64,000 nucleotides of DNA, from contig JAEYPQ010000073.1 of assembly GCA_023410645.1 (NCBI GenBank), forward strand, positions 10,971 through 74,970. The letters are read 5' to 3'. The position numbers and the translations under genes were made by a program. This document shows, in pieces, positions 7,998 through 37,192 of the stretch. The notes below the pieces were generated by a model. The model was not told the DNA's origin. It did no database searches and saw nothing but the letters and a program-made list of their open reading frames with translations. The DNA is from Bacillota bacterium (GTDB taxonomy: Bacteria > Bacillota > Clostridia > TANB77 > CAG-465). The number at the start of each line of letters is the position of its first letter. Position 1 is the first letter of the stretch.

Positions 7998-8006
7998 ACG
8001 CACCTC

Positions 8007-9817: not shown

Positions 9818-10005
9818 GTCATCACCTGCACTTTTAATTGATTCCAAAATTATATTAGAACTTACAAGTGTAATAAAAAAGATATATATATTGAAAAGAC
9901 GCCACATGCATATAGCATTGACGTTCCTTTCTTTTATAAATCATTTTTCATAGTTATACAATTTGTAATAATCAAATTAATTTGAGACCCTTACAAAATT
10001 CAGTA

Positions 10006-10581: not shown

Positions 10582-10584
10582 ATA

Positions 10585-10938: not shown

Positions 10939-10941
10939 CTA

Positions 10942-11439: not shown

Positions 11440-11440
11440 T

Positions 11441-11905: not shown

Positions 11906-12441
11906 ATTCTTCTATCCTATTATCTTGCACTCTTTTATGCTAATAGTAATTGAAATTAGTATTTAATAAAGTTTTATCACCTAAAGCCAAAATAAAAACT
12001 GCTATCTTTAGTGGGTATTAATTTAAATTATACTAATATTTAGAATAAGGTACACGTATTTAATAGAATGATTGTTAGATAAGCTTTAATCTTTTATATT
12101 ATCAACTTATCTTATACTTTAAAGAATTAATACTTTTTCTACAATTCCCTTAACCAGGTTAGTTCACAATTGATTAGTAACTTATCTACTTATATATTCC
12201 TTACACATAAGCAAGTTCTAAAAAAAATATTGTTTTTCTAAATTTTGTATCATATCCTTTATATGTTGCATGATTTTCTTGCCTATATTCTATATTTTGA
12301 GACTCCAAACTTTGCATTGAAACTTTTTTAATTTACCAGTATATATTTGATAAATTAAAAATATTAGCTTCTTTAACGTCTGGCTTAAAAGACAAAAAGC
12401 GAATTCATAAAAACGCTTGATAACTAAATTTATCTTTTAAT

Positions 12442-12855
12442 TTAATTTTTATCTTTTACTTGTATTAATATATCTTTTAATTTATCAGGATAAGGAACAC
12501 CTAACTTAGTTGTATTTTCCAATAATGATATACCCTCATTAGCTATATAGAAAAGTATTGATAAATTCCTTAACATTTCTATATTAAGTACTTGATCTAA
12601 TTTATTACATAGACCAATTAGTCCAAAAATTAAGAACTTTTTAAATATCCCTTTATATCCAACTTCAGAATTTAAATTCTTATTTATAAAAATCGCCACT
12701 GCTAAACCAGTTATGAAGTCGGTAAATGTAAATGCAACTAGTAAACTCATAGACACATCCCATCCTCCTAAATAACTAGATATTATGGTACATAATGTTG
12801 CAAATACCAAACAAATGGATTGTCCTATTTCACTTAAATTAGTTAATCTAAACAT
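12442..12855 (-). CDS. holin, TcdE/LL-H (toxin secretion / phage lysis) family
   Basis: Pattern GGWDVSMSLLVAFTFTDFITGLAVA...GYKGIFKKFLIF...ANEGISLLENTTKLGVPYP with three TM segments. The ATG at 12855 lies 5 nt after an AAGGGGGTGA SD. Confidence 0.75.
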   Translation of the reverse strand: MFRLTNLSEIGQSICLVFATLCTIISSYLGGWDVSMSLLVAFTFTDFITGLAVAIFINKNLNSEVGYKGIFKKFLIFGLIGLCNKLDQVLNIEMLRNLSILFYIANEGISLLENTTKLGVPYPDKLKDILIQVKDKN

Positions 12856-13049
12856 CTTTATCACCCCCTTTAGTATTTAATTGAAAAAACACTGTGTTTT
12901 TACAGCATTTTTATATTTTTTATCATGGATTTTTATTAATTAATTACTGTATGATTTAATTTTTTTATTGTATATATCTATTGCTATTATACATTATAGC
13001 ATGGTTTTTCTTTAAAATATTGTTCTTTTATTCCCAGTTTCTTCCCGAT

Positions 13050-13682
13050 TTAATAATTTGTTCTAATTATTCCTAAGATTTTTTTCTTTATATTAGATAA
13101 TTTATTTTGTAATCTTTTTTGAGTTAAATCCTTATTGAAGTTTTTATTGTATGATATTTCTATATCATGCCAATCCATGTTTTCATAATACTTACATTCT
13201 ACTAGAAATACATCTTTTGGACTTAACGTACTAAATGCTACTTCTAACTTTCTTACTTCAATCTCTAAAGCAATTCTTTCACTCTTTGCTATTTTTATTA
13301 GCTCCTCAGCTTGTCTATGATTTAATTCATTTCTTAATGCTTGACTTTCAACTGGACTATATATTCTATTTTTTGACTTAGGCATACCAAATGTAGATTC
13401 TGAAACATTGGTAAAAATATTCTCATTTTCTTCTAAGGCTCTATTCCATACATCTATTCGCTCTGACAATGTGGCAATCTTTGCTTTATTATTCATATAA
13501 TTTTTTAACATATGATTTATATCTTTCATATCCAGTAATGCATCTGCACATGGTGTACTACTTTCCCTTTTCATTTTTCTTGGTTCCTTACAAAATTTAC
13601 AATAACTATAACTTTCACACATACCACCATTGCATTTTAGTGCTTCTTTTTCTAATTTCTCTTGTATTTCTTCCCTATTCAT
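13050..13682 (-). CDS. phage late-gene activator, sigma region-4-like (ArpU/RinA/DUF1492-type), with Cys-rich N-terminus
   Basis: FGMPKSKNRIYSPVESQALR...LSPKDVFLVECKYYENMDWHDIEISYN...TQKRLQNKL resembles sigma-like phage activators. The N-terminus carries the cysteines C..C....C..C. Confidence 0.5.
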   Translation of the reverse strand: MNREEIQEKLEKEALKCNGGMCESYSYCKFCKEPRKMKRESSTPCADALLDMKDINHMLKNYMNNKAKIATLSERIDVWNRALEENENIFTNVSESTFGMPKSKNRIYSPVESQALRNELNHRQAEELIKIAKSERIALEIEVRKLEVAFSTLSPKDVFLVECKYYENMDWHDIEISYNKNFNKDLTQKRLQNKLSNIKKKILGIIRTNY

Positions 13683-13700
13683 ATATTCATTTTACTCCTT

Positions 13701-13892
13701 CTACTTTTTTATATTTTTTTGGCAATCCATATATTTCTCATATGTATAACTTAATAATTGAATAAATTCTTTTGTAAGCATTTTATCTTTATTTTTATAA
13801 AATATTTTCTGTATTAGGTTGTGTATCTCTATATAATTACTTTGATGTATTTTTTCATTTTCAATATAATTTTTAGTTTTATTTTTTGTCAT
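13701..13892 (-). CDS. hypothetical phage early protein (63 aa)
   Basis: ORF with an AAGGTGA SD 8 nt upstream, lying in the operon. Confidence 0.45.
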   Translation of the reverse strand: MTKNKTKNYIENEKIHQSNYIEIHNLIQKIFYKNKDKMLTKEFIQLLSYTYEKYMDCQKNIKK

Positions 13893-13900
13893 TGTCTAAT

Positions 13901-14200
13901 TCACCTTCTCACATAATCTAATATTTCTTCTGTTTTATTTAATCTGGATTTCTGAACTTTTTTATCTGATTTTAGATTTGTATATTTTTCCTGTAATTTT
14001 CTTCTGCATCTACTTACACTTTCAAATGTTGGCAATCCCAAAAACTTGTATTCCCTAAATATATATCCAAAATCATTTATTGATAGGCCAGGATTTAACT
14101 TATATATCACTTCCACATATAGTAAATGATCATCCAATCTTGCTAATTTATTCTGTTCAAGTACATCTTTCACAAATTTCTCAATATTATACATTTTCAT
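13901..14200 (-). CDS. hypothetical phage early protein
   Basis: ORF-track entry 13901..14209. The ATG at 14200 is best spaced from the GGTGG SD. No motif recognised. Confidence 0.5.
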   Translation of the reverse strand: MKMYNIEKFVKDVLEQNKLARLDDHLLYVEVIYKLNPGLSINDFGYIFREYKFLGLPTFESVSRCRRKLQEKYTNLKSDKKVQKSRLNKTEEILDYVRR

Positions 14201-16699: not shown

Positions 16700-17155
16700 T
16701 CATTTATTTGCTTTTTTTATCCTTAATTGTTTAAAGAACTCACTTAGAATATTAGAACATTTTTGTGTGTTTTGTAAATATTCATATTCTACTTTATGAG
16801 TCGTATTTATATCAAGTATATTGCCAATTGATCCAACACAACCATTTTTTTCATCCTTTGCGCCAATATATATTTTTTTTATTCTTGATTGAGTTAATGC
16901 ACCTGCACACATTGCACATGGTTCCAAAGTAACATACATTTCACATCCATCAAGTCTCCAACTATTTAACTTTTTACACGCTTTTTCTAAACAAAGTATT
17001 TCTGCATGCGCTAAAAATATATTTTTCTTTTCCCTAAGATTATGTGCTCTGGCAATAATTTTATCATCCTTTACTATAACTGCACCAACTGGCACTTCAT
17101 CTTTATCATACGCTTTCTTTGCCTCTTTTAAAGCTTCTTCCATGTATTTATTCAC
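16700..17155 (-). CDS. tadA: tRNA-specific adenosine deaminase
   Basis: CMP/dCMP deaminase zinc motifs HAEILCLEKA and PCAMCAGAL; 151 aa. Confidence 0.9.
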   Translation of the reverse strand: MNKYMEEALKEAKKAYDKDEVPVGAVIVKDDKIIARAHNLREKKNIFLAHAEILCLEKACKKLNSWRLDGCEMYVTLEPCAMCAGALTQSRIKKIYIGAKDEKNGCVGSIGNILDINTTHKVEYEYLQNTQKCSNILSEFFKQLRIKKANK

Positions 17156-17888
17156 TACTTACTCCTTTTTTTGAAAAATAATCCTGTAACCCTATAAATA
17201 TTCCCCAAGCAAGTTTGTTTTGATATTCATCAGTTGTCAAAAGTTGTGCTTCCTGTTTATTTGATAAAAAGCCACATTCTACTATAACACAAGGTATTGT
17301 AACATTATTCATAATATATACTTCTGTTATTGGTAATGGTGTCCTATCATTTTTAAATTCAATATTTTTATTTAAATTCTGTTGTATTAAATTTGCTATC
17401 ATCTTACTATCTTCATCATTTTTCTGATAAAATGTTTGCCATCCTCTATATATCTCTGAAGGTGGATATTTATTTAAATGTATTGAAACAAATACATCCG
17501 CTGAACTTTCATTTCCAATCTTAACCCTATTTTTTATATCACTAACCTTTTTATTTCTTATACTATTACTATCAGAAGAATATATTCCATTTTCGTCACT
17601 CCTAGTAAGTACAACTTTTGCTCCACTTTGCTCAATAAGTCTTTGAAGTTTTAATGTTACCGCTAAATTAGTGGCCTGCTCGGTAGTACCATTAAAACCA
17701 ACGGCTCCTTCATCAGGAAGCCCATGTCCAGCATCTATTACAATAACTTTATTTGCAATTGGTGTTGCATTTACTTGAGTAGTTTGATTATTTTCATTTA
17801 TATTATTTATTATACCATATGAACCTAAAGAAAGCAAAACAAAAAGGCATACATATATAATCCTTTTATGAAATATTGTTAATTTCAT
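17148..17888 (-). CDS. cwlD: N-acetylmuramoyl-L-alanine amidase (germination-specific CwlD-like)
   Basis: Signal anchor followed by amidase_3 motifs VIDAGHG..DEGA and FVSIHLN. Confidence 0.8.
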   Translation of the reverse strand: MKLTIFHKRIIYVCLFVLLSLGSYGIINNINENNQTTQVNATPIANKVIVIDAGHGLPDEGAVGFNGTTEQATNLAVTLKLQRLIEQSGAKVVLTRSDENGIYSSDSNSIRNKKVSDIKNRVKIGNESSADVFVSIHLNKYPPSEIYRGWQTFYQKNDEDSKMIANLIQQNLNKNIEFKNDRTPLPITEVYIMNNVTIPCVIVECGFLSNKQEAQLLTTDEYQNKLAWGIFIGLQDYFSKKGVSSE

Positions 17889-20495: not shown

Positions 20496-20544
20496 CAATA
20501 AAAAAATACAAAATCCAACAATTATTTGTTAATTTTGTATTTTT
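20496..20544 (-). terminator. terminator closing the VirB4/Tad-like operon
   Basis: Perfect 12-bp stem AAAATACAAAAT / ATTTTGTATTTT, followed on the minus strand by a T-run. It lies just after the stop at 20549. Confidence 0.65.
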
Positions 20545-20548
20545 AATA

Positions 20549-21844
20549 TTATTTGAACAATTCCATTAATCTATCATTTGCTTCTTTTAATTCATTATAC
20601 TCCTTAGCTGTAAGCTTTGATGTATCATTATTGTATTTTTCAATTTCATTACTTATTATATACATTGTTTTAACATGTTTTGTAGAAAACTGTGTCCAAA
20701 TACCTATTTGATCTTTAGTTTTCATTTCAGTAGAGGTACCTATGACTTCACCTTTTTTATTTTTTGTAATATCTTTTGTAAATTCAATATTTACAATTGC
20801 ATTCACTCTGTTATCTGCTGTATCATAGCTTCCCATAAAATCTCCTAAACCATATGCAGCATATATGTGAGTATCTTTATCATTAACTTTTATTAAATCT
20901 TCTTCAGTATCTTGTACTACATTACTTCCAGTTCCAAGGACAACATTAACACCATTATTAAATAGAGTATCAACACATTCTTTCTGCTTACTATTTGGTA
21001 TAGTACTATTTTCATTTGGTACGTATAAGTATGAAATTATATAATCAACATTTTTAGATTTTAAATACTCTATATCCTTTTTTATATTATCTTCTTCAAA
21101 AATGTTAACTAAATAATCTTTACTTGCTTTAATTGAAACATTAGTATCTGTTGTATATGATAAGATCCCTATACTTATATTATTTTTTGTAATTACAACA
21201 GGGTCATTTCTTGTTTCAGAACTTATTCCAACTTGAGATATTTCTTTATCCTTTAATGCCTTTTCTGTTTGTATAATGCCATTTTCATTTTTATCCATTG
21301 AGTGTTGGTTTGCTGTTGCAACTACACTAATATTTAATTCTTTTAAAGTATCAAGTAGCTCTATTGGAGCATTATATACGCTTTTGGCAGAATAAGATAA
21401 TGAATCAGCAACAGGCGTGTTTAAACTTGCAATAACTAAATCATAATCTTTTAGCTTTTGGCTTACATCATCTATTCCAGTACTAAAATCATATGTAGAT
21501 CCAGTTTTTGCACCACTTAAAGAATTAGAAGTAAGATAAATGTCGCCTAACGCAGCGATTTTTAAACTATAATTTTCAACAGTTTGGTTAGGAGCCTTTG
21601 TTATAAACATTCCTACAAAAGAATTAACTGAATTGTATAACCACATTTTTTCCTTATCACGCATTCCCAAAGTATATGTTATCATTGTGTAAACTTGGTA
21701 ACCAACAAATATAGTTAATATAATCCATATAAATAATTTTATTTTTAGTTTATTTTTATCTTTATTATTTAAAGCAATACTCTCATTATCTTCTATATCA
21801 TTTTGATTTATTCTGTTAGAATATTCAATATTTCTTCTTCCCAT
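20549..21844 (-). CDS. CapA/PGA_cap-family metallophosphatase-like ectoprotein with N-terminal TM anchor
   Basis: TM segment IWIILTIFVGYQVYTMITY, then AALGDIY..., ANQHSMD and GLGDF patterns typical of CapA. The ATG at 21844 follows AGGAGA. Confidence 0.6.
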   Translation of the reverse strand: MGRRNIEYSNRINQNDIEDNESIALNNKDKNKLKIKLFIWIILTIFVGYQVYTMITYTLGMRDKEKMWLYNSVNSFVGMFITKAPNQTVENYSLKIAALGDIYLTSNSLSGAKTGSTYDFSTGIDDVSQKLKDYDLVIASLNTPVADSLSYSAKSVYNAPIELLDTLKELNISVVATANQHSMDKNENGIIQTEKALKDKEISQVGISSETRNDPVVITKNNISIGILSYTTDTNVSIKASKDYLVNIFEEDNIKKDIEYLKSKNVDYIISYLYVPNENSTIPNSKQKECVDTLFNNGVNVVLGTGSNVVQDTEEDLIKVNDKDTHIYAAYGLGDFMGSYDTADNRVNAIVNIEFTKDITKNKKGEVIGTSTEMKTKDQIGIWTQFSTKHVKTMYIISNEIEKYNNDTSKLTAKEYNELKEANDRLMELFK

Positions 21845-21886
21845 TTTTATATAATCTCCTATTTTTGCATTGTACAATACATTATA

Positions 21887-22606
21887 CTACAAATTGTTGC
21901 AAATTTGCAACTGCATAGGTGATAATTTATTGTTTTTATTATTCACTAACTCAGTCATATTTTGAATAATATTATTTTCTTTTATACATTCTAAGCTATT
22001 ATTTACCAATTTTTGCTTTGCATTTAATTGTTTTGCTATAGAATTTAAACTATCAATTTCAAACTTTTCATATGATTGATACCACTGATTACATAGTTGT
22101 TTAAAATCTGTAACCTTTTCTCTTATTCTATCAAAACTTCTATCCAACTTTTCTACGAAAGTTTTACTAGATATAAATGTTTTTATATCTTTAACAAATG
22201 TATTAATGTATGGTTCAAAAATATTATTTTTAAACGTATTTTTACAAAATATATCTATTCCTGCATTAATTGCAGAAGTTATCCCGCCTTTAATTGCAAT
22301 ATCTTTAATTTTACTAATATCTTTAAGAACGTTTTTTGGCATATTTAATATTTCTAAGCCTTCTCTTACACTACTATTTACTGCAGTTTTAATTATTTCT
22401 TTAAAATCTTTAGTTTTTAAAGAATTCTTTACATCAATTAATATATCCTTTATATGCCCATTTACTGGTGAAGCCTTAATAGCATATTCTGCTCCCTTAT
22501 CTATTATATTTCCAATTATATTTTGAAATTCATTATTATTTTTAGAAATTTGCAAGTTTAAATCCCTATCAATTTCTAAACCATTTACTATATCTAAATT
22601 TTGCAT
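21887..22606 (-). CDS. hypothetical soluble helical protein (239 aa), operon member
   Basis: ORF track. It lies 2 nt after the upstream gene and 9 nt before the track-called TTG start (21877) of the CapA-like ORF. No TM segment or motif recognised. Confidence 0.55.
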   Translation of the reverse strand: MQNLDIVNGLEIDRDLNLQISKNNNEFQNIIGNIIDKGAEYAIKASPVNGHIKDILIDVKNSLKTKDFKEIIKTAVNSSVREGLEILNMPKNVLKDISKIKDIAIKGGITSAINAGIDIFCKNTFKNNIFEPYINTFVKDIKTFISSKTFVEKLDRSFDRIREKVTDFKQLCNQWYQSYEKFEIDSLNSIAKQLNAKQKLVNNSLECIKENNIIQNMTELVNNKNNKLSPMQLQICNNL

Positions 22607-22608
22607 TT

Positions 22609-23511
22609 TTATTCCTCCAATTTATTTATTTTTCTTATAAATAAAAATATTAACATAAATGATATAATATCAATATTTATAATTATTTTGCCAAACAAAG
22701 TGTTTAACATTATACTCTTATACTCATCATTTAATAATATAAATGTAAAAAGTATATAAATATTTATTATTAAAAGTAACATAAGAACTAGTTTTGAAGA
22801 AAAACTTTCTTCATTTTCTTTTTCTTTTTGAATATTAAACTTTACAAGTATCTTAGAAAATCTATCTAATAATTTATTAAAATCTCCACCATTTATATAT
22901 GAATATTGAGATGCAATAATGAATTCACTTATTTTCTCGATATTTATATTTTTTTTTAGACTTTCAAAAGACTCAAAAACACTAATTCCCTTTTCAATAG
23001 ACAAATTAAATTTATCTACATAAATTGAAAGAGGAGTTTCCGTTTTTGTCTTTTTAAAGGCCAGTACTATATTATTTGTAGATTTAGTATAATTTTTTAA
23101 TGATATTGCATACATAGGAAATATTCTTAAAATCTTATTTTTTTGATTATTTACAATGTATTCAATTATTAAGTACGGTAATATAAATACAAAAATTGAG
23201 AATATCAAAGAAGTTGATAAAATATTTGTTAATATATATATTATTGAAAAAGTTATTATGGACAAAAAAATTGAAATTGATAAAATTATTACTGAATTTA
23301 GAAAATACAGATTTTTATTACTAGAATTTTTTATTTCTAATAAATAATAATTAATTTTTTGAATAAATTTAATTCTATTTAATTTATATGTTAATTTATT
23401 ATATTCAATCTTTTTCTTACCCTTAAAATCTAGAAAAATTTCATATATTGAATATATGATTAAAAATATTATTAACATCTCTAAAATTGTATTTATAATA
23501 ACAAATAGCAC
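22609..23511 (-). CDS. TadB/TadC-like (T2SS-F domain) polytopic membrane protein
   Basis: N-terminal TM, a central TM pair, a cytoplasmic helical domain (FPMYAISLKNY...GISVFESFESLKKN...ISEFIIASQYSYINGGDFNKLLDRFSKIL) and a C-terminal TM pair, matching the GspF/TadB layout. Confidence 0.6.
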   Translation of the reverse strand: MLFVIINTILEMLIIFLIIYSIYEIFLDFKGKKKIEYNKLTYKLNRIKFIQKINYYLLEIKNSSNKNLYFLNSVIILSISIFLSIITFSIIYILTNILSTSLIFSIFVFILPYLIIEYIVNNQKNKILRIFPMYAISLKNYTKSTNNIVLAFKKTKTETPLSIYVDKFNLSIEKGISVFESFESLKKNINIEKISEFIIASQYSYINGGDFNKLLDRFSKILVKFNIQKEKENEESFSSKLVLMLLLIINIYILFTFILLNDEYKSIMLNTLFGKIIINIDIISFMLIFLFIRKINKLEE

Positions 23512-23518
23512 CTACTTT

Positions 23519-24691
23519 CTAATATATATTTAATATTTTTATTTTATTTTCATCTTTTATATAATCAACTTCTACTATTTCTTTTACTTTATAGTTTTCT
23601 AAATAAATTATATAATCTATACTACTTGCAAGTATTTGTTCTATGAACTCTTTTGTATATTTTTGATTTTTATCATCTCTTTTAAATAATGTTATTAATC
23701 TATTTATTGTATTTTCTGATGAATCTGAATGTACTGTTGCAATCCCCATATGACCTGTACATATAGAATCCAAAAAACTAGATGTTTCTTCACCTTTCAA
23801 TTCTCCAATCACAATAACATCATTAGACATTACTAGACTATGTTTCATCAATCTTTGTAATGTTATCTTACTAGAATCTTTTCTATTTTCTACTATTTCA
23901 CGTTGAATTATATTTTTATTTTCTATAAATAATTCAGTTGTTTCTTCATTGGTGGTAATTGAGATAGTATCTGGTATTTTATCTATTATTGCTCTAAGTA
24001 AAGTAGTTTTACCACTACCACCCTTTCCTGAAATTATTATGTTTTTAAAACTATTGATAGCCTCATACATTATTTTATATGATTTCGAATCAAGCATATC
24101 TTCTATAATAAATAATCTCTCCAAGGTAATATTTTTATTATTTCTATGTATTCTTATTACTATGCTCGAAGAAATAGAATTAACTGGAGATATCCCAGCC
24201 TCAATTCTTAGATTATATTTTTTATCACTTACAATTACTATAGGGATATCAAAGTTTATATTTGAATTATTCTTCTGTACACAAAATCTTATATACTGTT
24301 CAAAGACATCATTATTTTCAAATTTATCCGCCACTTTAATCCATTTTCCATTCTTCTTTATATATATATTATCATATCTAACCGCTCTAATATCAGTTAT
24401 ATCTGAATCATCGATATATTTTTGCAAAATATCATATCCAAACATTTTATTTATAAGTGTATTTACAATTAGATTTTGTGTATCCTGATTTTTTATCCTA
24501 TATTTTTGAATCAAATATTCATATATTTTTTCTTTAATTTCTTCTTTTAAATCTTTTTGCAGATATTCAATATAATTATTTATTATAAATCTTTGTATAT
24601 CTAAAATATCAATCTCTTTATTTTCTTCAATATCTGTTCTTTTAATAATTTCATTATTATCATTTTCTTCTTTAAAAATATTTGTTATCAC
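23519..24691 (-). CDS. CpaF/TadA/VirB11-family secretion ATPase
   Basis: Walker A SGKGGSGKTTLL, Asp/Walker B region DVIVIGELKGEE, and His box GHMGIATVHSDSSENTINRL. Confidence 0.8.
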   Translation of the reverse strand: MITNIFKEENDNNEIIKRTDIEENKEIDILDIQRFIINNYIEYLQKDLKEEIKEKIYEYLIQKYRIKNQDTQNLIVNTLINKMFGYDILQKYIDDSDITDIRAVRYDNIYIKKNGKWIKVADKFENNDVFEQYIRFCVQKNNSNINFDIPIVIVSDKKYNLRIEAGISPVNSISSSIVIRIHRNNKNITLERLFIIEDMLDSKSYKIMYEAINSFKNIIISGKGGSGKTTLLRAIIDKIPDTISITTNEETTELFIENKNIIQREIVENRKDSSKITLQRLMKHSLVMSNDVIVIGELKGEETSSFLDSICTGHMGIATVHSDSSENTINRLITLFKRDDKNQKYTKEFIEQILASSIDYIIYLENYKVKEIVEVDYIKDENKIKILNIY

Positions 24692-25890
24692 TTAATGTTT
24701 CCTCTTTTTTTAATTAAATTTTCAAATGAATTAATAATCTTAATTTTTTCTTTTTTATTATTTATTCCTAAATTTCTATACATATTTTGAGTGTTTATCT
24801 TCACATCAATTATATTTATCGCTCCATTTATAAAAGATTCTATATCTTTATTATATTCTATACTTAAGATAGCCTTATAACCTTTTATTAAAGATTCAAC
24901 TTGATCTATATCTAAAGAATTTTTTTGTATTTTATTTAAAATAATATTAATCTTCTCCTTTTGTATATTCCAATTTCTAACCATTAAATCTAGATATTTT
25001 ATAGCTTGTCTTATACTTAAATAATTAGGATTAATGACAAAATATATCTTAGTGGAGTATTTTAAAGTGTATTCTACAACATCTAAAAATGGTGTTGATG
25101 GTAAATCTATAACACAATATTCATAAGTTTGTGAACAAGCTGAATATATTTTTTGATAATACTCTTTTGATAGTTTATTTTGACAATCATATAGACTAAC
25201 ATTATTAGTTATATAATTTAGTTTTCTATTATTTTTATCCTTTTGAACATATTTATTAATATTTCCATTTATTTCAATCCTTTTATCCACATCTTCAACA
25301 ATTTGAGAAATGTTACTTACATTAGCTTCTAAATTATTAAATATATCAATTGATGGATTTTGAATATCCATATCTATAAGGCAAGTAGAGATCTTTAGTT
25401 CATTACAAATTTCTTTTGAAATAATGCTAGAAATAAATGATTTACCCGCTCCACTTGTGCCAAATACAGCAATCATCTGTTTAGGTATAACTTGATTACT
25501 ATTAAATATTTCATTACTCTTGTATATTATATTTTTATCATTTTCAATTACATCAGCTATTTGCTTTATATCTATATATTCACCCTCAATAATGTTAAAT
25601 ATTTTATTTGAAAAAAGAAATTCTTTATATTCATTAGTAAGTTTAGAAACTATATAAATAACTCGTGTATTATTATTTGATAACTTAATTTGTTTTGCAA
25701 ATAGCATATTATTTAAATTTCCATTTAGATTATCTCTTGTTATTAAAATATATTCCTCATCTGTATTACTTAAAAATTCAATTACTCCTTCCATATATGT
25801 TATATCCTGTTTATATACAATATCGCCATATAATTTAATTAGTTCATTTTTTACCTTTTCATTATCTAGTGCTACTAGTATTTTCATCAA
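24688..25890 (-). CDS. TadZ/CpaE-like protein: receiver-like N-domain plus P-loop NTPase
   Basis: The N-terminus MKILVALDNEK...ILITRD looks like a CheY-type fold. The P-loop is AVFGTSGAGKSF. It overlaps the downstream gene by 4 nt. Confidence 0.5.
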   Translation of the reverse strand: MMKILVALDNEKVKNELIKLYGDIVYKQDITYMEGVIEFLSNTDEEYILITRDNLNGNLNNMLFAKQIKLSNNNTRVIYIVSKLTNEYKEFLFSNKIFNIIEGEYIDIKQIADVIENDKNIIYKSNEIFNSNQVIPKQMIAVFGTSGAGKSFISSIISKEICNELKISTCLIDMDIQNPSIDIFNNLEANVSNISQIVEDVDKRIEINGNINKYVQKDKNNRKLNYITNNVSLYDCQNKLSKEYYQKIYSACSQTYEYCVIDLPSTPFLDVVEYTLKYSTKIYFVINPNYLSIRQAIKYLDLMVRNWNIQKEKINIILNKIQKNSLDIDQVESLIKGYKAILSIEYNKDIESFINGAINIIDVKINTQNMYRNLGINNKKEKIKIINSFENLIKKRGNIK

Positions 25891-25891
25891 T

Positions 25892-27673
25892 TTATTCCTC
25901 CATTATCTTTTTTTCATAATTACTTATTTTTATGTTTATTATAGATATATTTCCTTTAAATATAATCATAGCTTGTCCTTTATTTAAGATGGAAATATTT
26001 TTTATAATTTTATCATTAAATTCACTTAAATTATTTAATATTTCTGTATCTGAATATTCTATTTTAAAGAATATCTTAAATGCACAATTATTAAGAATAC
26101 TTTTACCATATATTCCATCCTGAAAAGAGAAAAAATCAGAAATATCTTGCGTTATAGAAATAATTCCTGCATTTAATTTTCTAATAGTTTTAAATAATGA
26201 AAATATATTTTCAGAAATTAATGATTCTTCTTTACTATTAATAAGTTTCCAAATCTCATCAATATATATAATAGTATTTTTTTTAGATTCTATTTTTACT
26301 TTTTCTGCTGTTAGTATATTTTTTATAATATTTAAGAAATATTTCGAAAATATAACTGAATCTTTTGAATCTATATTAGAAAGATCAAAAACTACTAGTT
26401 TAGACATAATATCCATATTTGTATTATTAGTAAGGCAAGTATATTTATTTATAATTTTCGTTTTTACTTTTTTATTTAATTCTTTATTTTCTATTTTCTC
26501 TAACACATCTTTTAATGTTGGAAATAGTATTTTGGATCTTAAAACTTTACTAATATATATTTTGTTTTCAAATTCATCCATATACAAGGATTCTAAATCA
26601 TTAATGTCATATTTCTTATATGCTAATCTAATCGCATTCTCTAGTTCAATTATCTCTTTTTCATTATTAACTCCAATTATCTCCAATAAAAATTCTTTAA
26701 TTTCTTGTATTTTATTTTCAATTACATTTTTCCCATATAAAACTACTTCAAATTCATTTATATCGAGTATATTTATATATTTATTAATATTTTTATTATT
26801 AAAAATAATGTACTCCATGTTGAGTTTTTCTGATATTTGAATATATTCACCCTCTGGATCAAATATATACTGATATTTATTATTAAAAAAGTGCCTAATA
26901 ATTAGTATTTTAGTAAAAAAGGATTTTCCGGAACCACTACTTCCCAATATACACATATTAGAATTTGTATATTCATTACTGAAAATATCTATATTATATA
27001 ATTTATTTTCTTTTGCAGTATATCCAAAAATAATTCCATTTTTATCAAATACATTTCTAGTATAAAAAGGAAAAATATTATTTAAAGATGATGTAATTAT
27101 ATTTCTATATGTATTTTTAATTAATTTATTTTGAAAATTTATTAATGGTAGAGTTAAAATATATGAATCCAAATGTCTAAAATTAGTTATATTTGAAATA
27201 AATTGATTAGAATAAAGTTTACTTTGAATTTTCTTTACATCAATTAATAATTGCTCTTTGTTAACATTATATAGTGTCAAATATATATTAATATAAAAAA
27301 TTTCTTCATTATTTATTTGTATTTGCCTTCTTAATTCTTGAGCATCATTACTTACTTTGTTTATTAAGTCATAATCTAATTGATTTTTATTTATAGTTTT
27401 AATCTCAGCTTTTGAAGAGGATATATATTTTGTTAATTGCCTTAATATATTATATGAATCTTGCTTTTGTATATAAAATGATATATCATATTCAATACTT
27501 TTAGGTAAGGCCTCTATAAGCTGTAAAAACTGTATTTTCTTTGGATAATCGCATATTGTAATATTACAGATATATTTATTATCTAATTTTAAGTATTTAA
27601 AATTCGTATTATCTATATAGCCAGGTAAAATATTAATTATATCAGTTTTATCACCATCAAATATATTATTCAT
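25892..27673 (-). CDS. VirB4/TraE-type conjugation-family ATPase, C-terminal two-thirds
   Basis: Walker A ILGSSGSGKSFF, FDPEGEY, Walker B with the DEAW-type motif IIYIDEIWKLI, and RKLNAGIISITQDISDF (RK.N..I..TQ..D). It has its own GAGGAGAA SD. Confidence 0.7.
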   Translation of the reverse strand: MNNIFDGDKTDIINILPGYIDNTNFKYLKLDNKYICNITICDYPKKIQFLQLIEALPKSIEYDISFYIQKQDSYNILRQLTKYISSSKAEIKTINKNQLDYDLINKVSNDAQELRRQIQINNEEIFYINIYLTLYNVNKEQLLIDVKKIQSKLYSNQFISNITNFRHLDSYILTLPLINFQNKLIKNTYRNIITSSLNNIFPFYTRNVFDKNGIIFGYTAKENKLYNIDIFSNEYTNSNMCILGSSGSGKSFFTKILIIRHFFNNKYQYIFDPEGEYIQISEKLNMEYIIFNNKNINKYINILDINEFEVVLYGKNVIENKIQEIKEFLLEIIGVNNEKEIIELENAIRLAYKKYDINDLESLYMDEFENKIYISKVLRSKILFPTLKDVLEKIENKELNKKVKTKIINKYTCLTNNTNMDIMSKLVVFDLSNIDSKDSVIFSKYFLNIIKNILTAEKVKIESKKNTIIYIDEIWKLINSKEESLISENIFSLFKTIRKLNAGIISITQDISDFFSFQDGIYGKSILNNCAFKIFFKIEYSDTEILNNLSEFNDKIIKNISILNKGQAMIIFKGNISIINIKISNYEKKIMEE

Positions 27674-27683
27674 ATTTTTCTCC

Positions 27684-28220
27684 TCATGTAATCTTTTCTT
27701 TATTTATACATTCATATAATACTAATTTTATATCTTCTATACTTCTTATTCTTGAAACAATACAACCAATCTGATTTAATTTGTATATAGTCTTATCCAC
27801 ATCCTCAATTCTAATGCTATCCTGATCTCTTATTGCAACAATTAAATAGTATTTGGATGAGTATATTTCTTCTTTTGATAATTTATCATATACATCGTTT
27901 AAATATAGTTTTTTTATATTGTCATATTCATTATCTACTTTTTCATTCGATATATTATTATATTTTTTCATATAATTTTCAGCATCAAACTTTCTATTTG
28001 AAATTAAAATTTGATACTCTAAGTTGAACTCTTTTAAAAATTGGATATAAATGTTAGAAATATCATTTTTAATATTTTCAGAAGAATCTAAAATACTCAC
28101 TGGCATTACTTCATAAATATATACATTTTTAATTGCCTTATTTATATTTATTTTTATACAGTCATTTGTTATATCAGATATATTATATACTTGACTTATA
28201 TCTTTATATTTGTTTTTTAT
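27684..28220 (-). CDS. VirB4 N-terminal-domain-like protein (separate ORF; start uncertain, possibly ATA at 28220)
   Basis: YIYEVMPVSILDSSENIKNDISNIYIQFLKEFNLEYQILI resembles the N-terminus of Gram-positive VirB4 proteins. The frame stays open upstream of the first ATG (28106) as far as a GAGGTGAT SD at 28224-28231. Confidence 0.5.
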   Translation of the reverse strand: MKNKYKDISQVYNISDITNDCIKININKAIKNVYIYEVMPVSILDSSENIKNDISNIYIQFLKEFNLEYQILISNRKFDAENYMKKYNNISNEKVDNEYDNIKKLYLNDVYDKLSKEEIYSSKYYLIVAIRDQDSIRIEDVDKTIYKLNQIGCIVSRIRSIEDIKLVLYECINKEKIT

Positions 28221-28371
28221 ATTATCACCTCACTTAGATTTTATAATTAATTGGAAATACGTTAAGAAATATTTAATAGACTTAAATAGTTAAAAAATAA
28301 AATAGAAAAAATATGTCAATAATATTAACATGCTTTAATTAATATGTCAATATTTTATTTCAATTATTTCA

Positions 28372-28387
28372 TCGCAAGTTTCGACAA
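28372..28387 (+). promoter_or_regulatory. 16-mer TCGCAAGTTTCGACAA containing a Spo0A box, in a divergent control region
   Basis: Contains TTCGACA (28380-28386). The identical 16-mer recurs at 29963-29978. Confidence 0.5.
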
Positions 28388-28488: not shown

Positions 28489-28668
28489 ATGAATAATGAT
28501 CAAAATCAAATGAATAATATGTTAAATTCAAAATTAATGGAGTTACTATCTACGATTGATAAAAGTAAAATAGATCAAGTTACTAGAATGGTACAAAATA
28601 TGTCTAGCGATGATTTAAATAATTTGGTAGGTATGCTAAGTAAGAATCAAAACCAAGATAAAAAATAA
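28489..28668 (+). CDS. small hypothetical protein (59 aa, MNNDQNQMNNMLNSKLMELLSTIDKSKIDQV...)
   Basis: Hand-translated ORF with an AAAAGGAGA SD. Its stop lies 1 nt before the next ATG. Confidence 0.55.
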   Translation: MNNDQNQMNNMLNSKLMELLSTIDKSKIDQVTRMVQNMSSDDLNNLVGMLSKNQNQDKK

Positions 28669-28669
28669 T

Positions 28670-29242
28670 ATGCAAGAAAATGAAACAAAAAGATCAGATG
28701 ATGCTGGTCTTCCGTCTGATAATTCTAACGAATTATATAACTTAATTCAAAGCATTCAATCCAAATTAAATAATGAAAATTCTAGTAATAATACATATAG
28801 TGAAATTGATGATAAAGGAACAAATAACACTACTCAAAATGTTGATTATACCTCAACTCAGAATAATACAAACAATCAAAGTACATATAATCAAAATGCA
28901 AATAATCAATTTAATTTTTCAAATTTAGGATCTATATTACAAAATCTCGATATAAGTACAATATTAGGTGCACTTGGTGGATCTTCGAAAAACCAAAATA
29001 GTACTGATAACACAGGTGGTTCGGGATTCAATTTAGGAGATATAGATCCAAACACAATATCTAGAATACAGAAAATAATATCATCAATGAGTAAAAGAGA
29101 TCCAAAAAAAGATTTACTATTATCTTTAAAACCGTTTTTAAGAAAATCTAGACAAGATAGAATTAGTGAATATGTTACAATGCTAACTGTTGCAAATGCA
29201 CTTGGAATTTTTGATAGAAAAGGTAGTGATGAAGATGTTTAG
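28670..29242 (+). CDS. N/Q/S/T-rich low-complexity protein with structured C-terminus
   Basis: ORF track. The first ~110 aa are N/Q-rich. The C-terminal region is DLLLSLKPFLRKSRQDRISEYVTMLTVANALG. Confidence 0.55.
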   Translation: MQENETKRSDDAGLPSDNSNELYNLIQSIQSKLNNENSSNNTYSEIDDKGTNNTTQNVDYTSTQNNTNNQSTYNQNANNQFNFSNLGSILQNLDISTILGALGGSSKNQNSTDNTGGSGFNLGDIDPNTISRIQKIISSMSKRDPKKDLLLSLKPFLRKSRQDRISEYVTMLTVANALGIFDRKGSDEDV

Positions 29243-29747
29243 ACAAAATATGTATGTTCCTAATTATTATAATTATGGCTATAGAAATAATATGTCAAAC
29301 ATGTACAACACTGCCTTTTATAATAATTATATACCATATAACTATAATCAGGATAACTACAATCAAAATATAAATGAGAATTTAAGTGAAGACATATCTG
29401 AAAACAATATTAATGATGAAAATGAAAACAAAACAGAAATATATCAAAATGAGACAGTCGAAAATAGTGAAAATATGAAAGATAATGATACTAAAAAAAA
29501 TGAGGATTTTACAAAAAATAACAAAGAAAGTAAAAGGGATGATAAAAAGGATGGCTTTAGATTTGGTCCCATTGGTTACAACGATGGTACACTATCTATA
29601 TTTGGGTTTTCGCTTGCACTAGACGATTTAATTATCATCGCTCTAATCTTTTTCTTATTTATAGAATCAAGTTGTGACTATTCTTTACTTATAATACTTG
29701 GTTTAATGTTATTTAATATTTCAATTAGTAGTTTAAATATTATTTAG
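29229..29747 (+). CDS. N/Y-rich protein with C-terminal TM hairpin
   Basis: MKMFRQNMYVPNYYNYGYRNNMSNMYNTAFYNNYIPYNYNQDNYNQ, then a charged region, then LIIIALIFFLFIESSCDYSLLIILGLMLFNI. The start was chosen as an in-frame ATG overlapping the upstream stop. Confidence 0.5.
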   Translation: MKMFRQNMYVPNYYNYGYRNNMSNMYNTAFYNNYIPYNYNQDNYNQNINENLSEDISENNINDENENKTEIYQNETVENSENMKDNDTKKNEDFTKNNKESKRDDKKDGFRFGPIGYNDGTLSIFGFSLALDDLIIIALIFFLFIESSCDYSLLIILGLMLFNISISSLNII

Positions 29748-29886
29748 CAACATCACATTCCTTATAATACTTAATTAATAGTTCATCTATCTCAACACTT
29801 GTTTTGTATATTTTTTCATATTTTTCATCTTTTAATATCTGATTTTCTAATTTTGCTTTTAAATTATTTATATCTTTTATGATCAT
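29740..29886 (-). CDS. Spo0E-family aspartyl-phosphate phosphatase-like protein (48 aa)
   Basis: Hand translation MIIKDINNLKAKLENQILKDEKYEKIYKTSVEIDELLIKYYKE fits the Spo0E pattern (helical hairpin with S.E.D.LI). A GAGGAGG SD lies 6 nt upstream. It is absent from the ORF track. Confidence 0.55.
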   Translation of the reverse strand: MIIKDINNLKAKLENQILKDEKYEKIYKTSVEIDELLIKYYKECDVAK

Positions 29887-29962
29887 AGACATCCTCCTCT
29901 TTTTCTACATAATTTATACCATTTTTAAGGTATAAAGTCAATAATTGTTGTCAAAAAATCGG

Positions 29963-30096: not shown

Positions 30097-31395
30097 CTAT
30101 TTTATATTTGTAATAATCGATATAACTTGTGTTTCTTCTTTTAGATTATTTAAGAATTCCTTTATATCTTCTTTAGTAATTGAATTTAATAAGCTTACAT
30201 CTTCATATAAAGTTATATTATCCACAATACTATCTATAATTCTTCTATAACTATTATTAAGATTTTCTGATGATAATATACTTTCACCTATTTTCATTTT
30301 TTTAATTATATTGAACATCTCTTCATCAATGTTAGAATTCTTAATATTATTTATATAATTTAAAATGTTATTTTTTAATATTTCTATATCCATAGAACCT
30401 GCAGATAATAACACATGTGCAAAAGAATCACTACCCTCGTATTCGAAATTTATTGGCTCATATATAAGTCCTAATTCATATTGTTCTTTAAAGAAATTAG
30501 TAAGTTTAGAAAAAAACATTTCTGAAATAAAATCTGCAATTACTTGCCTTTTTACTATTTCATTTCCTTTTACTACTGGTAACTTATATCCAATACATAA
30601 TTGAGACATATAAATATCCATTTCTTTTTTTATTATTTTTTCCTGTACACTGTCTTTTTCTTCTTCAAAATATTTTGTTATATCTTTTACCTTTGCATTA
30701 TCATAATCTTTCTCATATATTTTTATATTATCTTCAATTAATTTTATAGTTTCTTCTTTATCTACATCACCAATAACAATAAAAAACATATTGCTTGGAT
30801 TATAAAATGTATTATAGCAAGTATATAATAAATCTTTATTTATACTTTGTATGGATTCAATTGTACCTGCAACATCTATCCTTATCGGATGAGTATTATA
30901 AATAGCTCTTAAAGCGTTAAAATATACGTTAAACATAGGATTGTCATCATACATACTAATTTCTTGAGCAATTATTCCTTGTTCTTTATTTACATTTTCA
31001 TCTGTAAAATATGGTGTTTTAACTAATTTAATTAAAAGTTCCACTGATTCTTTAAATCTTTCTATAGTTTCAAAATAATATACTGTTTGATCAAAGCTTG
31101 TATAAGCATTTGAAGATACACCTATTTTGGCAAATAAATCAAGTGCATTTGCACCTTCTTGCTCAAACAATTTATGTTCTAAAAAATGTGCTATTCCATC
31201 AGGTACTTTTATTCTTTCATTTGTCTTGATATCCACAAAATCATTTATTATTGAACCATATTTTGTACCAAATAATCCAATTTTCTTATTATATCCTTTT
31301 TTACTACAAATATAGACTTCAAGACCATTTTTTAATACTATTTTTGAAATTTCTTCATCTAAATATTCATTTTTAAATGTTTCAAATTTATACAT
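30097..31395 (-). CDS. M16 (pitrilysin/insulinase) family zinc peptidase, active-type subunit
   Basis: Inverted zinc motif HFLEH in GIAHFLEHKLFEQ. The ATG at 31395 follows GGAGGTGA. Confidence 0.8.
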   Translation of the reverse strand: MYKFETFKNEYLDEEISKIVLKNGLEVYICSKKGYNKKIGLFGTKYGSIINDFVDIKTNERIKVPDGIAHFLEHKLFEQEGANALDLFAKIGVSSNAYTSFDQTVYYFETIERFKESVELLIKLVKTPYFTDENVNKEQGIIAQEISMYDDNPMFNVYFNALRAIYNTHPIRIDVAGTIESIQSINKDLLYTCYNTFYNPSNMFFIVIGDVDKEETIKLIEDNIKIYEKDYDNAKVKDITKYFEEEKDSVQEKIIKKEMDIYMSQLCIGYKLPVVKGNEIVKRQVIADFISEMFFSKLTNFFKEQYELGLIYEPINFEYEGSDSFAHVLLSAGSMDIEILKNNILNYINNIKNSNIDEEMFNIIKKMKIGESILSSENLNNSYRRIIDSIVDNITLYEDVSLLNSITKEDIKEFLNNLKEETQVISIITNIK

Positions 31396-32656
31396 CACCC
31401 TCACCTCCAAGTAATAGTATTTTTTCTAATTTAACTTTTTTAGAAAAATTTAGTACATCTTCAATTGATACTTTTTCTATTCCATCTATTAAATCTTCTA
31501 CTTTACTATTAGGATCTTTACTTGAAATTATATTAGTAATTATCATTTTAGCAAGAGTAATTTTTGAATCATTCCACTCTAATAAATCAGATATTAAGCT
31601 TTCCTTTGCAGCATTAAATTCTAAATCAGATATTTTTCCATTTGAAATCTCATTTATATTATCTATTATTACTTGTTTTGCTTTATCATAATTTTTCTTT
31701 TGAATTCCAGCATATATTATAATTATATCTTTAAATCTATAACATCTCGATCTTACAGTATATGCTAAAGATTCTTTTTCTCTAAAATTTTGAAATAGTT
31801 TTGAGCTTGGATTTGAACCAAGTATAGAATTATACACATTTAAAATATAAAAGTCTTCTAATGAAAAATCACTTATTCTGAGTCCAAGTGTTAATACACT
31901 TTGTGTTGTCTCTTGTGATTCATATATTTCTTCTACTTGCTTATTTTCATTTTTTCTTAATGAATTATTTATAATCAAATCTTTATATCCTATAACTGAA
32001 TTTAATTTATCTTTAAATATATCTTCTATTTTTTCATTTATATTTTCATAACCGGTAATATTTCCAGATAAAATAACAGTGATACAAGATTTATTTAATA
32101 AATTATCATATATTTTTGATAAATCTTTTGATGTAATTTTTTCTACATCTTCCTCTAACCCATAAATAGATGCCCCAAATGGCTCGTTTTTACACATTAT
32201 ATTTTCCATTCGTACAACTGAGTACTTAAGTTTTTCATCTTTTCTTATTTTTATTTTATTAAGTATTGCATCCTTTTCTTTTTCAACTAATTGATTATCA
32301 AATAAGTTATCTTTCATATTTGGCATATATATTATATCATGTAAAAATTCTATACTTTTTAAGACTACATCCTCATTGTTTGGCAAGAATTTTTTATTTA
32401 TGCATTCTACTCTAAATTCTATATTATATATATCACCTATTAACTCCAAATTAATATCGAAATTAACACCGTATAGACTATATAAATATTTTTGAATCTC
32501 TATTTGTGTTTTCAATCTGCTATTTGATTTTGCAAGAATAGAGCTAAGAACAGCATATTTTGAAATATCTTCTTGACTTGCATTTATAGTATAATTAAAA
32601 GACACATATATACTCTTAAATTTACTATCATTAATTTTATAAATATTATTAACCAT
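31388..32656 (-). CDS. M16-family peptidase, HxxEH-less partner subunit
   Basis: Its size and fold pattern parallel the downstream M16 gene and it overlaps that gene by 8 nt. No HxxEH motif is visible. Confidence 0.65.
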   Translation of the reverse strand: MVNNIYKINDSKFKSIYVSFNYTINASQEDISKYAVLSSILAKSNSRLKTQIEIQKYLYSLYGVNFDINLELIGDIYNIEFRVECINKKFLPNNEDVVLKSIEFLHDIIYMPNMKDNLFDNQLVEKEKDAILNKIKIRKDEKLKYSVVRMENIMCKNEPFGASIYGLEEDVEKITSKDLSKIYDNLLNKSCITVILSGNITGYENINEKIEDIFKDKLNSVIGYKDLIINNSLRKNENKQVEEIYESQETTQSVLTLGLRISDFSLEDFYILNVYNSILGSNPSSKLFQNFREKESLAYTVRSRCYRFKDIIIIYAGIQKKNYDKAKQVIIDNINEISNGKISDLEFNAAKESLISDLLEWNDSKITLAKMIITNIISSKDPNSKVEDLIDGIEKVSIEDVLNFSKKVKLEKILLLGGEGDV

Positions 32657-36409: not shown

Positions 36410-37192
36410 TTGAAACTTATACAAATGCTTAATAGAAATAGAATCAACATAATTATTATATTTATTATTTTAATCTTAAGTATTCCAGCTGGTTCTTACA
36501 TTGATTCATATCAAAAAAGACAAAAAGATTCTCATGCATATGCTTTTGCCTCTCAATTATATAGCAATCCAATAGAAATTAATATAGATGAGAAATCTGT
36601 TGAGAATACTGATGGAAAATCCGATTATGATTATAAAGAAAAGATTGAGATTATTAATCATGATGAAGAGATTAATTCACTTATCCAAGAAAAGATTGAA
36701 ACTAGGAAATATCAAAAAGAACTTCAAATGAGAGAAATAGAAAAAAAGAAACAAGAGTTAAAAAAACAAAAGGAAAAGGAACTAAAGTATAAAAAAAATC
36801 TTGAGAAATATTCTAATGAAGATATTGATTTATTAGCACATCTTATTTTTGCCGAGGGTGAAAGTTTACCAAAACGAGGAAAGATTCTTATAGCTATTGC
36901 CGTAAAAAATCGTTTAAAAGCTAAAGAATTTCCAGATACAATTCCAAAAATTGTCTTTCAAAAAACATTTTATAAAGGAAGTGTAAGATCCCAATTTAGT
37001 TGTACAATTGATGGTCGCATTAGTTTAGCATATACAGATGAATGTTTGAAAATAGCAAAAGGAGTTCTTTCTGGAGAAATTAATGATAAGCTTCAACCAT
37101 TATATTTTGACTCCTTACCTATGGGAGATTCATGGGCATCAAGAAATAGACCCTACATAACAACTATCGATAATATGAATTATTTCGAATAG
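36410..37192 (+). CDS. cell wall hydrolase, SleB/CwlJ (Hydrolase_2) family, with TM anchor and K/E-rich linker
   Basis: DIDLLAHLIFAEGESLPKRGKILIAIAVKNRL is the Hydrolase_2 signature. It uses a TTG start after AAGGAGA. Confidence 0.7.
   Translation: MKLIQMLNRNRINIIIIFIILILSIPAGSYIDSYQKRQKDSHAYAFASQLYSNPIEINIDEKSVENTDGKSDYDYKEKIEIINHDEEINSLIQEKIETRKYQKELQMREIEKKKQELKKQKEKELKYKKNLEKYSNEDIDLLAHLIFAEGESLPKRGKILIAIAVKNRLKAKEFPDTIPKIVFQKTFYKGSVRSQFSCTIDGRISLAYTDECLKIAKGVLSGEINDKLQPLYFDSLPMGDSWASRNRPYITTIDNMNYFE

Follow-up and report, generated by a model that had tools for sequence, protein, structure and literature searches.

VirB4 is regarded as the signature ATPase of conjugation and of type IV secretion systems (T4SS). 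In Gram-negative T4SS it is encoded together with VirB11, an ATPase of the VirB11/TadA superfamily; VirB11 is not normally known from the T4SS of monoderm bacteria. Sporulation is served by a pair of secretion-type proteins, SpoIIIAA and SpoIIIAB of the A-Q complex, which are a secretion-superfamily ATPase and a GspF/T2SSF-like membrane protein. The core of Tad/Flp pili consists of TadZ, TadA (CpaF) and TadB/TadC, with the locus order tadZ-tadA-tadB (PMC6668835). Chromosomal, relaxase-less VirB4-like proteins tied to sporulation are found in the cmdABCDEF genes of Streptomyces (PMC2782261) and among the MOBless co-opted T4SS (PMC3548315), and these, like Tad loci and the VirB4-VirB11 pairing, are partial precedents for the locus described here. 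This is a seven-gene operon, g1 to g7, in a 64,000-nucleotide chromosome segment (the window) of a Bacillota bacterium of the clostridial lineage TANB77 (GCA_023410645.1, contig JAEYPQ010000073.1, positions 10,971 to 74,970). The operon encodes a VirB4 in two parts (g1, g2), a TadZ-like protein (g3), a CpaF-like ATPase (g4), a platform protein of the T2SSF family (g5), a helical protein of unassigned fold (g6) and a CapA-like ectoprotein (g7).

Full-text searches of the literature gave no description of an operon joining VirB4, TadZ, CpaF, TadB and g6, the precedents covering parts only, and the novelty assumed in the initial annotation of this DNA still stands. We tentatively interpret the operon as a co-opted, relaxase-less ATPase module derived from T4SS and Tad components that is switched on at the onset of sporulation. 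It is possible, if doubtful, that the divided VirB4 and g6 together constitute an unrecognised ATP-driven machine confined to a large clade of uncultured endospore-forming gut Clostridia, switched on by Spo0A and mounted ancestrally on a Tad-type motor. If true, such a machine could move protein or DNA across the septum or the envelope as sporulation begins, and would add a developmental function in monoderm bacteria to those for which T4SS parts have been co-opted. A split, vertically inherited and relaxase-less VirB4 tied both to Tad parts and to the master regulator of sporulation would be a rare recruitment of this kind in Gram-positives, and its carriers are abundant uncultured members of the gut Clostridia.

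The seven ORFs lie on the minus strand and are densely packed (20549-28229 in our ORF survey), with no gap exceeding 10 nt. The g1 stop (27684) and the g2 start (27673) are separated by 10 nt and the g2 stop (25892) and g3 start (25890) by 1 nt; the coding regions of g3 and g4 share 4 nt (24688-24691), and the remaining stops and starts fall at 23519 and 23511 (g4/g5), 22609 and 22606 (g5/g6) and 21887 and 21877 (g6/g7). The ORF coordinates bear out the seven genes and every junction that had been reported. The operon span of 20549-28231 proposed at that time was right about the gene packing and wrong at its upstream edge, as position 28231 falls within an upstream in-frame stop codon, TGA (28232-28230).

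A genome scan recovered 79 species-representative loci in which the same gene order recurs, as it does on further metagenome contigs. All 79 come from metagenome-assembled genomes (MAGs) of uncultured gut Clostridia, including Clostridium sp. CAG:465, CAG:921 and CAG:1219, which are putative members of the order TANB77, and bins from rabbit, Hadza and ruminant samples. The relatives that we recovered include no cultured carrier.

A divided VirB4 and its helical partner

The second gene, g2 (25892..27673, minus strand), encodes 593 residues that comprise the second half of the VirB4 N-domain and the ATPase domain. The motifs that had been quoted for it are present (GSSGSGKSF, IIYIDEIW and ITQDISDF), and its Pfam matches are to P-loop_TraG/DUF87/AAA_10. 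Against the VirB4 CD1110-family model g2 scored 157 bits over positions 191-730 of 752, with a further match to the VirB4 Mbov_0397 model, and the g2 family profile matched the VirB4 C-terminal domain in the PDB (4AG5, 1e-39). The Walker A motif GSSGSGKS and the Walker B residues DE are invariant in the g2 alignment (A1). The first gene, g1 (27684..28220, minus strand, about 178 residues), carries the N-terminal domain of VirB4 as an ORF of its own; its orthologues match the TraC-like Pfam family PF26593, and a search of g1 against the PDB gave no match. When g1 and g2 were joined in a virtual fusion they formed one collinear stretch, covering 37-730 of the 752 positions of the CD1110 model and 99-893 of 894 in Mbov_0397, and the fusion outscored g2 alone on the VirB4 models. 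The split is seen in every related locus where both genes were detected. On these alignments g1 and g2 are evidently one VirB4 that was divided by gene fission.

The operon protein shares the ATPase fold and motifs of the conjugative VirB4s of Firmicutes (CD1110/TcpF/PrgJ-type; NF045971; PDB 4AG5) and is collinear with the whole model. It differs from them in being split, chromosomal and vertically inherited, and its score lies far below the curated equivalog cut-offs (168 against 325 bits). The nearest VirB4s on plasmids were about 25% identical in tblastn searches, with no match above 27% overall. The top match, on plasmid pJ62_2, is an unsplit protein of about 830 residues encoded beside pilin, hydrolase, VirD4 and TrbL genes, whereas the operon VirB4 has no adjacent pilin, hydrolase, VirB6/TrbL, VirD4 or relaxase. 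An origin from an integrative conjugative element (ICE) or a plasmid was rejected on the low identity of these matches, the ordinary T4SS context of the one inspected and the lack of any homologue of g6 on plasmids (tblastn).

The start of g1 is unusual. There is no ATG, GTG or TTG upstream of Met-28106; since the orthologue alignment reaches around 40 residues further up, we placed the start upstream of this methionine. The likely start, as predicted from the sequence, is an ATA codon at 28220-28218, which stands 4 nt after a Shine-Dalgarno motif, GAGGTGA (28231-28225). An ATA, ATT or ATC start positioned by a Shine-Dalgarno motif was predicted for g1 in 51 of about 77 orthologous loci, and in 26 of 71 no in-frame ATG, GTG or TTG alternative is present. 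Starts of the AUA/AUU type are discriminated by IF3, as at infC. The recurrence of such a start in g1 would suggest IF3-sensitive initiation and possibly translational control.

The core partner of VirB4, g6 (21887..22606, minus strand), is a soluble all-helical protein of 239 residues. Its model is of high confidence (pLDDT 91.9) and contains 11 helices. No significant match was found to Pfam, NCBIfam or PDB sequence profiles, and Foldseek searches with the model did not detect a relative, either in the PDB (best E value 0.78) or in BFVD (0.37). Structure and profile searches likewise gave no support for g6 as an ESCRT-III/PspA-like protein or a pore-former. We detected 3,634 homologues, in 404 clusters at 50% identity, none of them named or carrying a Pfam domain. 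With neither a Pfam family nor a known fold matched, g6 represents a new protein family.

One homologue, P0399, is a natural fusion of a receiver-like N-domain of the g3 type with g6 (hhalign probability 95.6%), and a weaker case is seen in P0388. Such fusions argue for a direct link between the g3 N-domain and g6. Other fusion proteins were listed in the g6 family. P0394 is among them; in P0458 half of g6 is followed or preceded by Cna-B-like repeats with an LPRTG sorting signal, and P0504 combines an integrase-like N-terminus with the C-terminus of g6. Either of these two may be a chimera of assembly or gene calling.

Inheritance and stepwise gene loss

The operon occupies two genomic contexts. 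In the closer clade (context A) the operon is preceded by YfmF/YfmH and three small genes that diverge from it and is followed by YlbF and a Zn-peptidase-like gene, in the vicinity of parB. In the distant loci examined (context B; 31-35% identity; L059, L051, L071, L084 and L085) it stands between the gyrase genes, as dnaA-dnaN-recF-gyrB-[g1 g2 (g3) g6]-gyrA. In two of these loci (L084 and L085) the gyrB-gyrA gap also holds a diversity-generating retroelement (bAvd and a reverse transcriptase), AbiEii and an Rpn/PDDEXK_2 gene. The g2 distances between loci correlate with those of the housekeeping gene YfmH (r = 0.82) and with those of g4 (r = 0.84), and gene order, spacing and catalytic motifs are kept down to 31-54% protein identity in around 80 species. 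The comparative data indicate that the operon is vertically inherited, chromosomal and origin-proximal, and that it is no ICE remnant. A second, paralogous copy on the same contig (P0070) was considered and rejected, as P0070 is an orthologue from another sample.

The locus flanks covered ±10 kb, with Pfam-annotated neighbours in six loci (L001-L004, L084 and L085). No relaxase, type IV coupling protein (T4CP), cell-wall hydrolase, VirB6 or integrase was found among these annotated flanks, nor a relaxase or T4CP among the window ORFs scanned. VirB6/TrbL-like and VirB8-like proteins, or a hydrolase next to VirB4, are absent from the operon and the annotated flanks, and Peptidase_A24 (prepilin peptidase) from the annotated neighbours. 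Screening by regex for Flp motifs and class-III signals yielded no pilin-like ORF, either in the window or within ±10 kb in 84 related loci. The hallmark parts of T4SS and Tad systems, which the initial annotation had reported missing, are indeed absent locally.

A decaying integrated conjugative element or defence island that happens to lie beside a Tad fragment, with no function in common, would account for a VirB4, the hallmark of conjugation, in such company. The g2 protein also matches the mad8 ATPase model of PADLOC (1.8e-18), the window contains a prophage remnant at a distance of 6 kb, and the context-B gaps hold defence and mobile genes. We consider this explanation very improbable, and it is contradicted by the evidence. 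The order, spacing and catalytic motifs described above are conserved across some 80 species, the operon co-diverges with YfmH, its promoter motif is conserved, and the annotated flanks hold no integrase, relaxase, T4CP or effector. The mad8 match extends over the P-loop domain alone, which is generic, and PADLOC matched none of the other components. PADLOC returned only generic P-loop matches for g2 and g4 (mad8, HerA, PtuA), nothing for g1, g3, g5, g6 or g7 and no complete system, and a PADLOC defence system was rejected. An accidental juxtaposition of an ICE remnant and a Tad locus, which had been raised as a possible refutation, is not what we see; the linkage of VirB4 to the Tad-type trio is real, being conserved and collinear, and g2 and g4 diverge in a correlated way.

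Gene content was scored with jackhmmer, the window proteins serving as queries on the six-frame ORFs from every locus. Both g1 and g2 were found in 81-82 of 82 loci and g3 and g6 in 71 each, while g4 was present in 33, g5 in 30 and g7 in 27, with only a fragment of g7 left in L021. Loci that lack g4 and g5 have g3 right beside g6; six loci keep only the N-domain of g3, and in five g2 directly abuts g6. With the g4-g5 pair in a minority of loci, g7 in fewer still and g3 truncated or absent in about a dozen, the proposal of one indivisible seven-gene machine with three ATPases has to be given up. The near-invariant core is, by this count, g1, g2 and g6, and the remaining parts, namely g4-g5, g7, the ATPase half of g3 and finally the whole of g3, have dropped out cleanly in separate lineages. 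Mapped on the g2 tree, g4-g5 are present in deep branches of each of the two clades and the absences are scattered; together with the co-divergence of g2 and g4, this indicates an ancestral g4-g5 pair and repeated loss. The losses form a natural dissection series, from the full operon to those without the motor, without the TadZ ATPase domain and with VirB4 and g6 only, which shows the dependencies between the parts.

The Tad-type cassette and the ectoprotein

The third gene, g3 (24688..25890, minus strand), encodes an atypical receiver-like N-domain followed by a MinD/ParA-type P-loop domain, assigned from profiles and from an AlphaFold2 (AF2) model searched with Foldseek. Its P-loop motif, GTSGAGKSF, was confirmed and its profile class is CbiA/MinD-type. 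The model (pLDDT 84.8) shows a flavodoxin-like N-domain and a MinD-like domain, and the top Foldseek match in the PDB was TadZ of E. rectale (3FKQ), which aligned over both domains (381 columns, 8.8e-12); the remaining matches span the ATPase domain alone. The acidic pocket of the receiver is replaced (A6, N9), the signature lysine of the deviant Walker A motif is absent (GTSGAGKS), and no match to Pfam TadZ_N was found. An atypical Walker A motif and low ATPase activity have been described for TadZ (PMC6668835).

The two genes that follow form the optional cassette. The first, g4 (23519..24691, minus strand), is a hexameric secretion ATPase of the CpaF/TadA type by its profiles, with a T2SSE match in Pfam (2e-26) and the motifs GKGGSGKTTLL and GHMGIATVHSDS confirmed. 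Its profile matched CpaF best in the PDB (128 bits, 3.4e-36) and VirB11/Cag-alpha second (110 bits), with additional matches to VirB11 and TrbB models. The second, g5 (22609..23511, minus strand), is a polytopic membrane platform protein with a single T2SSF domain, similar to TadB/C, and has five hydrophobic windows. The window copy matches T2SSF weakly (8e-4); all 27 of the orthologues match it (PF00482), at best with 8e-8. Neither g4 nor g5 matched Pfam Spore_III_AA or Spore_III_AB. The last gene, g7 (20549..21877, minus strand), is an optional PGA_cap (CapA-like) ectoprotein (1.7e-40) anchored by a single N-terminal transmembrane (TM) segment. All the family assignments made from the sequence at the outset, and above all those of g2 to VirB4 and of g3-g5 to the Tad/T2SS families, were upheld by these profile and structure searches, and the motifs quoted at the time are present in g2, g3 and g4. 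The Walker motifs are invariant in the alignments of all three, which suggests that the ATPases are still functional.

The three protein types g3-g4-g5 stand in the order of tadZ-tadA-tadB. Unlike Tad/Flp loci, which have two platform genes or a fused TadC-TadB, the operon has one single-domain T2SSF gene, and a second was not found at the locus; CpaB, pilins and prepilin peptidase are lacking. The cassette is embedded between VirB4 and g6 and is dispensable, and the TadZ-like gene is retained in most motor-less loci, where it can shrink to its N-domain. Compared with the VirB4-VirB11 pair of Gram-negative T4SS, the operon likewise encodes a VirB4-family and a VirB11/TadA-superfamily ATPase together; g4 is, however, closer to CpaF than to VirB11, and the T2SSF platform has no counterpart in T4SS. 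The likeness of g4-g5 to SpoIIIAA-SpoIIIAB is one of functional analogy and not of membership, the A-Q complex having neither VirB4 nor TadZ.

The match of g3, g4 and g5 to TadZ, CpaF and T2SSF in the order of a tad locus (PMC6668835) could also mean that g3-g5 serve as a second motor of a pilus or secretion system of the Tad type, with pilins and prepilin peptidase encoded elsewhere and VirB4 and g6 as accessories. A single-domain T2SSF protein is the building block of Tad platforms, and another Tad cluster, reported as conserved in TANB77 and containing seven pilin-like genes, is a candidate source of pilins (PMC11680825). The pilins of TANB77 have been linked to immunotherapy response in the same work. 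The operon is an orphan, as it had been called, only in a relative sense, as these pilins, if encoded in this genome, could act in trans. We nevertheless think a pilus motor unlikely. The g4-g5 pair is missing from around 60% of loci while g1, g2 and g6 persist, which rules out pilus extension by g4-g5 as the conserved function, and no pilin-like ORF was seen within ±10 kb in the 84 loci. VirB4 is not known to play a role in Tad pili.

Promoter, Spo0A box and neighbouring genes

A promoter scan identified a consensus sigma-A-type promoter (28322..28350, minus strand) in the promoter region that had been proposed, with TTGACA at 28350-28345 and TG-n-TAATAT at a spacing of 17 nt, its TAATAT at 28327-28322. 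The same arrangement is present in orthologues. Upstream of it lies a Spo0A box, TGTCGAA (28380..28386, minus strand), which forms the first 7 nt of the conserved sequence TGTCGAAAnTTGCGAyGAAA (28386-28367). In the window and in three context-A orthologues counted, the box starts 36 nt before the -35 element and is followed by TTGCGAyGAAA, with a TTGAC-17-TAtAAT arrangement downstream of the box in orthologues. The exact box occurs in 22 of 50 context-A intergenic regions, always on the operon strand, at a density of 3.26 per kb compared with 0.085 per kb in the background of the same loci, an enrichment of about 38-fold. In context-B loci, which have gyrB as the upstream neighbour, the box likewise stands ahead of g1, its distance from the -35 being fixed in both contexts; the box therefore belongs to the operon rather than to the divergent genes. 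Two perfect boxes stand 10 bp apart in two loci, and versions with one mismatch occur in others. A palindromic operator, TGTCGAAAnTTGCGAC, was also considered and rejected, as only its left half is invariant; in two loci a second, directly repeated box stands in place of the right half, which favours tandem Spo0A boxes.

The presence of one or more 0A boxes upstream of, or overlapping, a sigma-A promoter is the pattern that marks members of the Spo0A regulon. The enrichment and single orientation of the box strengthen the earlier hint of developmental control, and putative regulation of the operon by Spo0A is supported. Within the window TGTCGAA occurs 11 times compared with 1.9 expected (none of 100 shuffles reached 11), nearly always between genes (1941, 1968, 18006, 19246, 28380, 29971, 36066, 36331, 38344, 47253 and 47462). 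One copy lies about 80 nt upstream of a Spo0E-like gene (29740-29892) and two lie in the dnaA upstream/oriC region. A canonical ftsA-ftsZ-spoIIGA-sigE-sigG block, read from the window and L087, lies at the right end of the window, with spoIIGA-sigE at 61719-63235 and sigG just outside. The window further encodes a SleB-like protein (36410-37192) and a CwlD-like amidase (17148-17888), which scored 211.7 bits, short of the cut-off of 221.6. Since spoIIGA-sigE-sigG occur together with CwlD-, SleB- and Spo0E-like genes, the host is by its gene content an endospore former.

These observations can be combined in a tentative model. The sequences show a conjugation-type VirB4 that has been exapted, split into g1 and g2 and coupled to the new helical protein g6, with the TadZ-TadA-TadB-like trio and the CapA-like g7 as parts of an ancestral layout that proved dispensable and were lost stepwise in several lineages. 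Transcription is predicted to start at the sigma-A promoter preceded by the conserved Spo0A box or boxes, with g1 often translated from AUA or AUU. On the model, the operon would be induced as Spo0A~P accumulates, on entry into stationary phase or sporulation. The TadZ-like g3 may act as a low-turnover localisation hub whose receiver-like domain contacts g6. A VirB4 hexamer, where the cassette is present stacked on or partnered with a CpaF-like hexamer on the T2SSF platform by analogy with VirB4-VirB11 of Gram-negative T4SS, could power the assembly or translocation of some substrate at the pole or septum. The module would not be a conjugation system, nor would it suffice by itself as a Tad pilus.

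Several points weigh against this model. No substrate, channel or pilin was found for the operon, and all its members are known from MAGs. The exact Spo0A box is present at only about 30-35 of some 80 promoters, the rest having a degenerate box or none, and consensus -35 and -10 elements at 17-nt spacing could drive constitutive expression that Spo0A might modulate or repress. The proposed physical contacts between g2 and g4 and between g3 and g6 draw on synteny, one fusion protein and analogy. No TM segment is predicted in g1, g2 or g6, and the minimal g1-g2-g6 forms span no membrane, so a role in the envelope needs partners encoded elsewhere. The envelope machine of the initial annotation is therefore an inference and not an observation.

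The soluble core would also suit a cytoplasmic DNA-handling motor that acts during differentiation, for instance in segregation or translocation around the asymmetric septum, in the manner of the VirB4-like CmdB of Streptomyces. VirB4 belongs to the FtsK-HerA pumping ATPases, g3 is a ParA/MinD-class partner, a Spo0A box lies in the promoter, and in both contexts the locus is a neighbour of oriC, close either to parB or to the gyrase genes that enclose it, a position that would then be functionally relevant. The cmdABCDEF mutants of Streptomyces are defective in chromosome segregation and sporulation septation (PMC2782261). Several findings nevertheless make a DNA motor a rather remote prospect. 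Profile searches found no DNA-binding domain in any product, VirB4 is not known to pump double-stranded DNA, and the ancestral T2SSF platform and ectoprotein point to the envelope. The gyrB-gyrA gap also gathers mobile insertions (the retroelement, AbiEii and the Rpn-like gene), and the position may reflect permissiveness. CmdB acts with five membrane proteins, unlike the g1-g2-g6 core; the Cmd system belongs to another phylum, has other partners and lacks Tad parts and g6, and its likeness to the operon was compared through VirB4 alone.

Downstream of g7 the operon ends in an AT-rich hairpin and U-run resembling an intrinsic terminator (20496..20544, minus strand). The hairpin at 20502-20544, with its U-run, has an energy of -16.3 kcal/mol (z = -3.6), and none of 200 shuffles folds as well. 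The terminator recorded in the initial annotation is retained on this measure, though the hairpin was not among the calls of a simple terminator scan.

The window itself is very AT-rich (20-30% GC). Its oriC/dnaA region lies at about 47 kb, where the GC skew flips; rnpA...parAB lie to its minus side, and dnaA-dnaN-recF-gyrB to its plus side. Here gyrB is followed by infC-rpmI-rplT-efp and not by gyrA (51810-55650). A prophage remnant, unrelated to the operon, occupies 1-14200 on the minus strand; judged from the translations only, it includes tape-measure-like (8007-9641) and tail/fibre-like (3188-7623) genes, an M23 peptidase (2401-3078) and a holin-like ORF (12442-12864). HTH regulators are encoded at 14.6-16.6 kb.

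Three small genes, up1-up3 (28489-29747, plus strand), diverge from the operon and encode proteins of 59, 190 and 185 residues. The 190-residue protein is N/Q-rich with an invariant C-terminal motif, LLxSLKPFLxxxRQ, and the 185-residue protein is Y/N-rich with two C-terminal TM segments; no match to any of the three was found in Pfam, NCBIfam or the PDB. They are kept beside the operon in about 50 context-A loci and, because they are absent from the gyrB-gyrA context, we leave them outside the system. A sigma-K or sigma-E promoter for up1 was dropped, as the sequence fits the sigma-A consensus (TTCACA-17-TATAAT). Directly upstream of these divergent genes is the YfmH/YfmF pair (30097-32656), which is associated with 5-aminopentanol modification of EF-P, and efp itself lies in the same 64-kb window.

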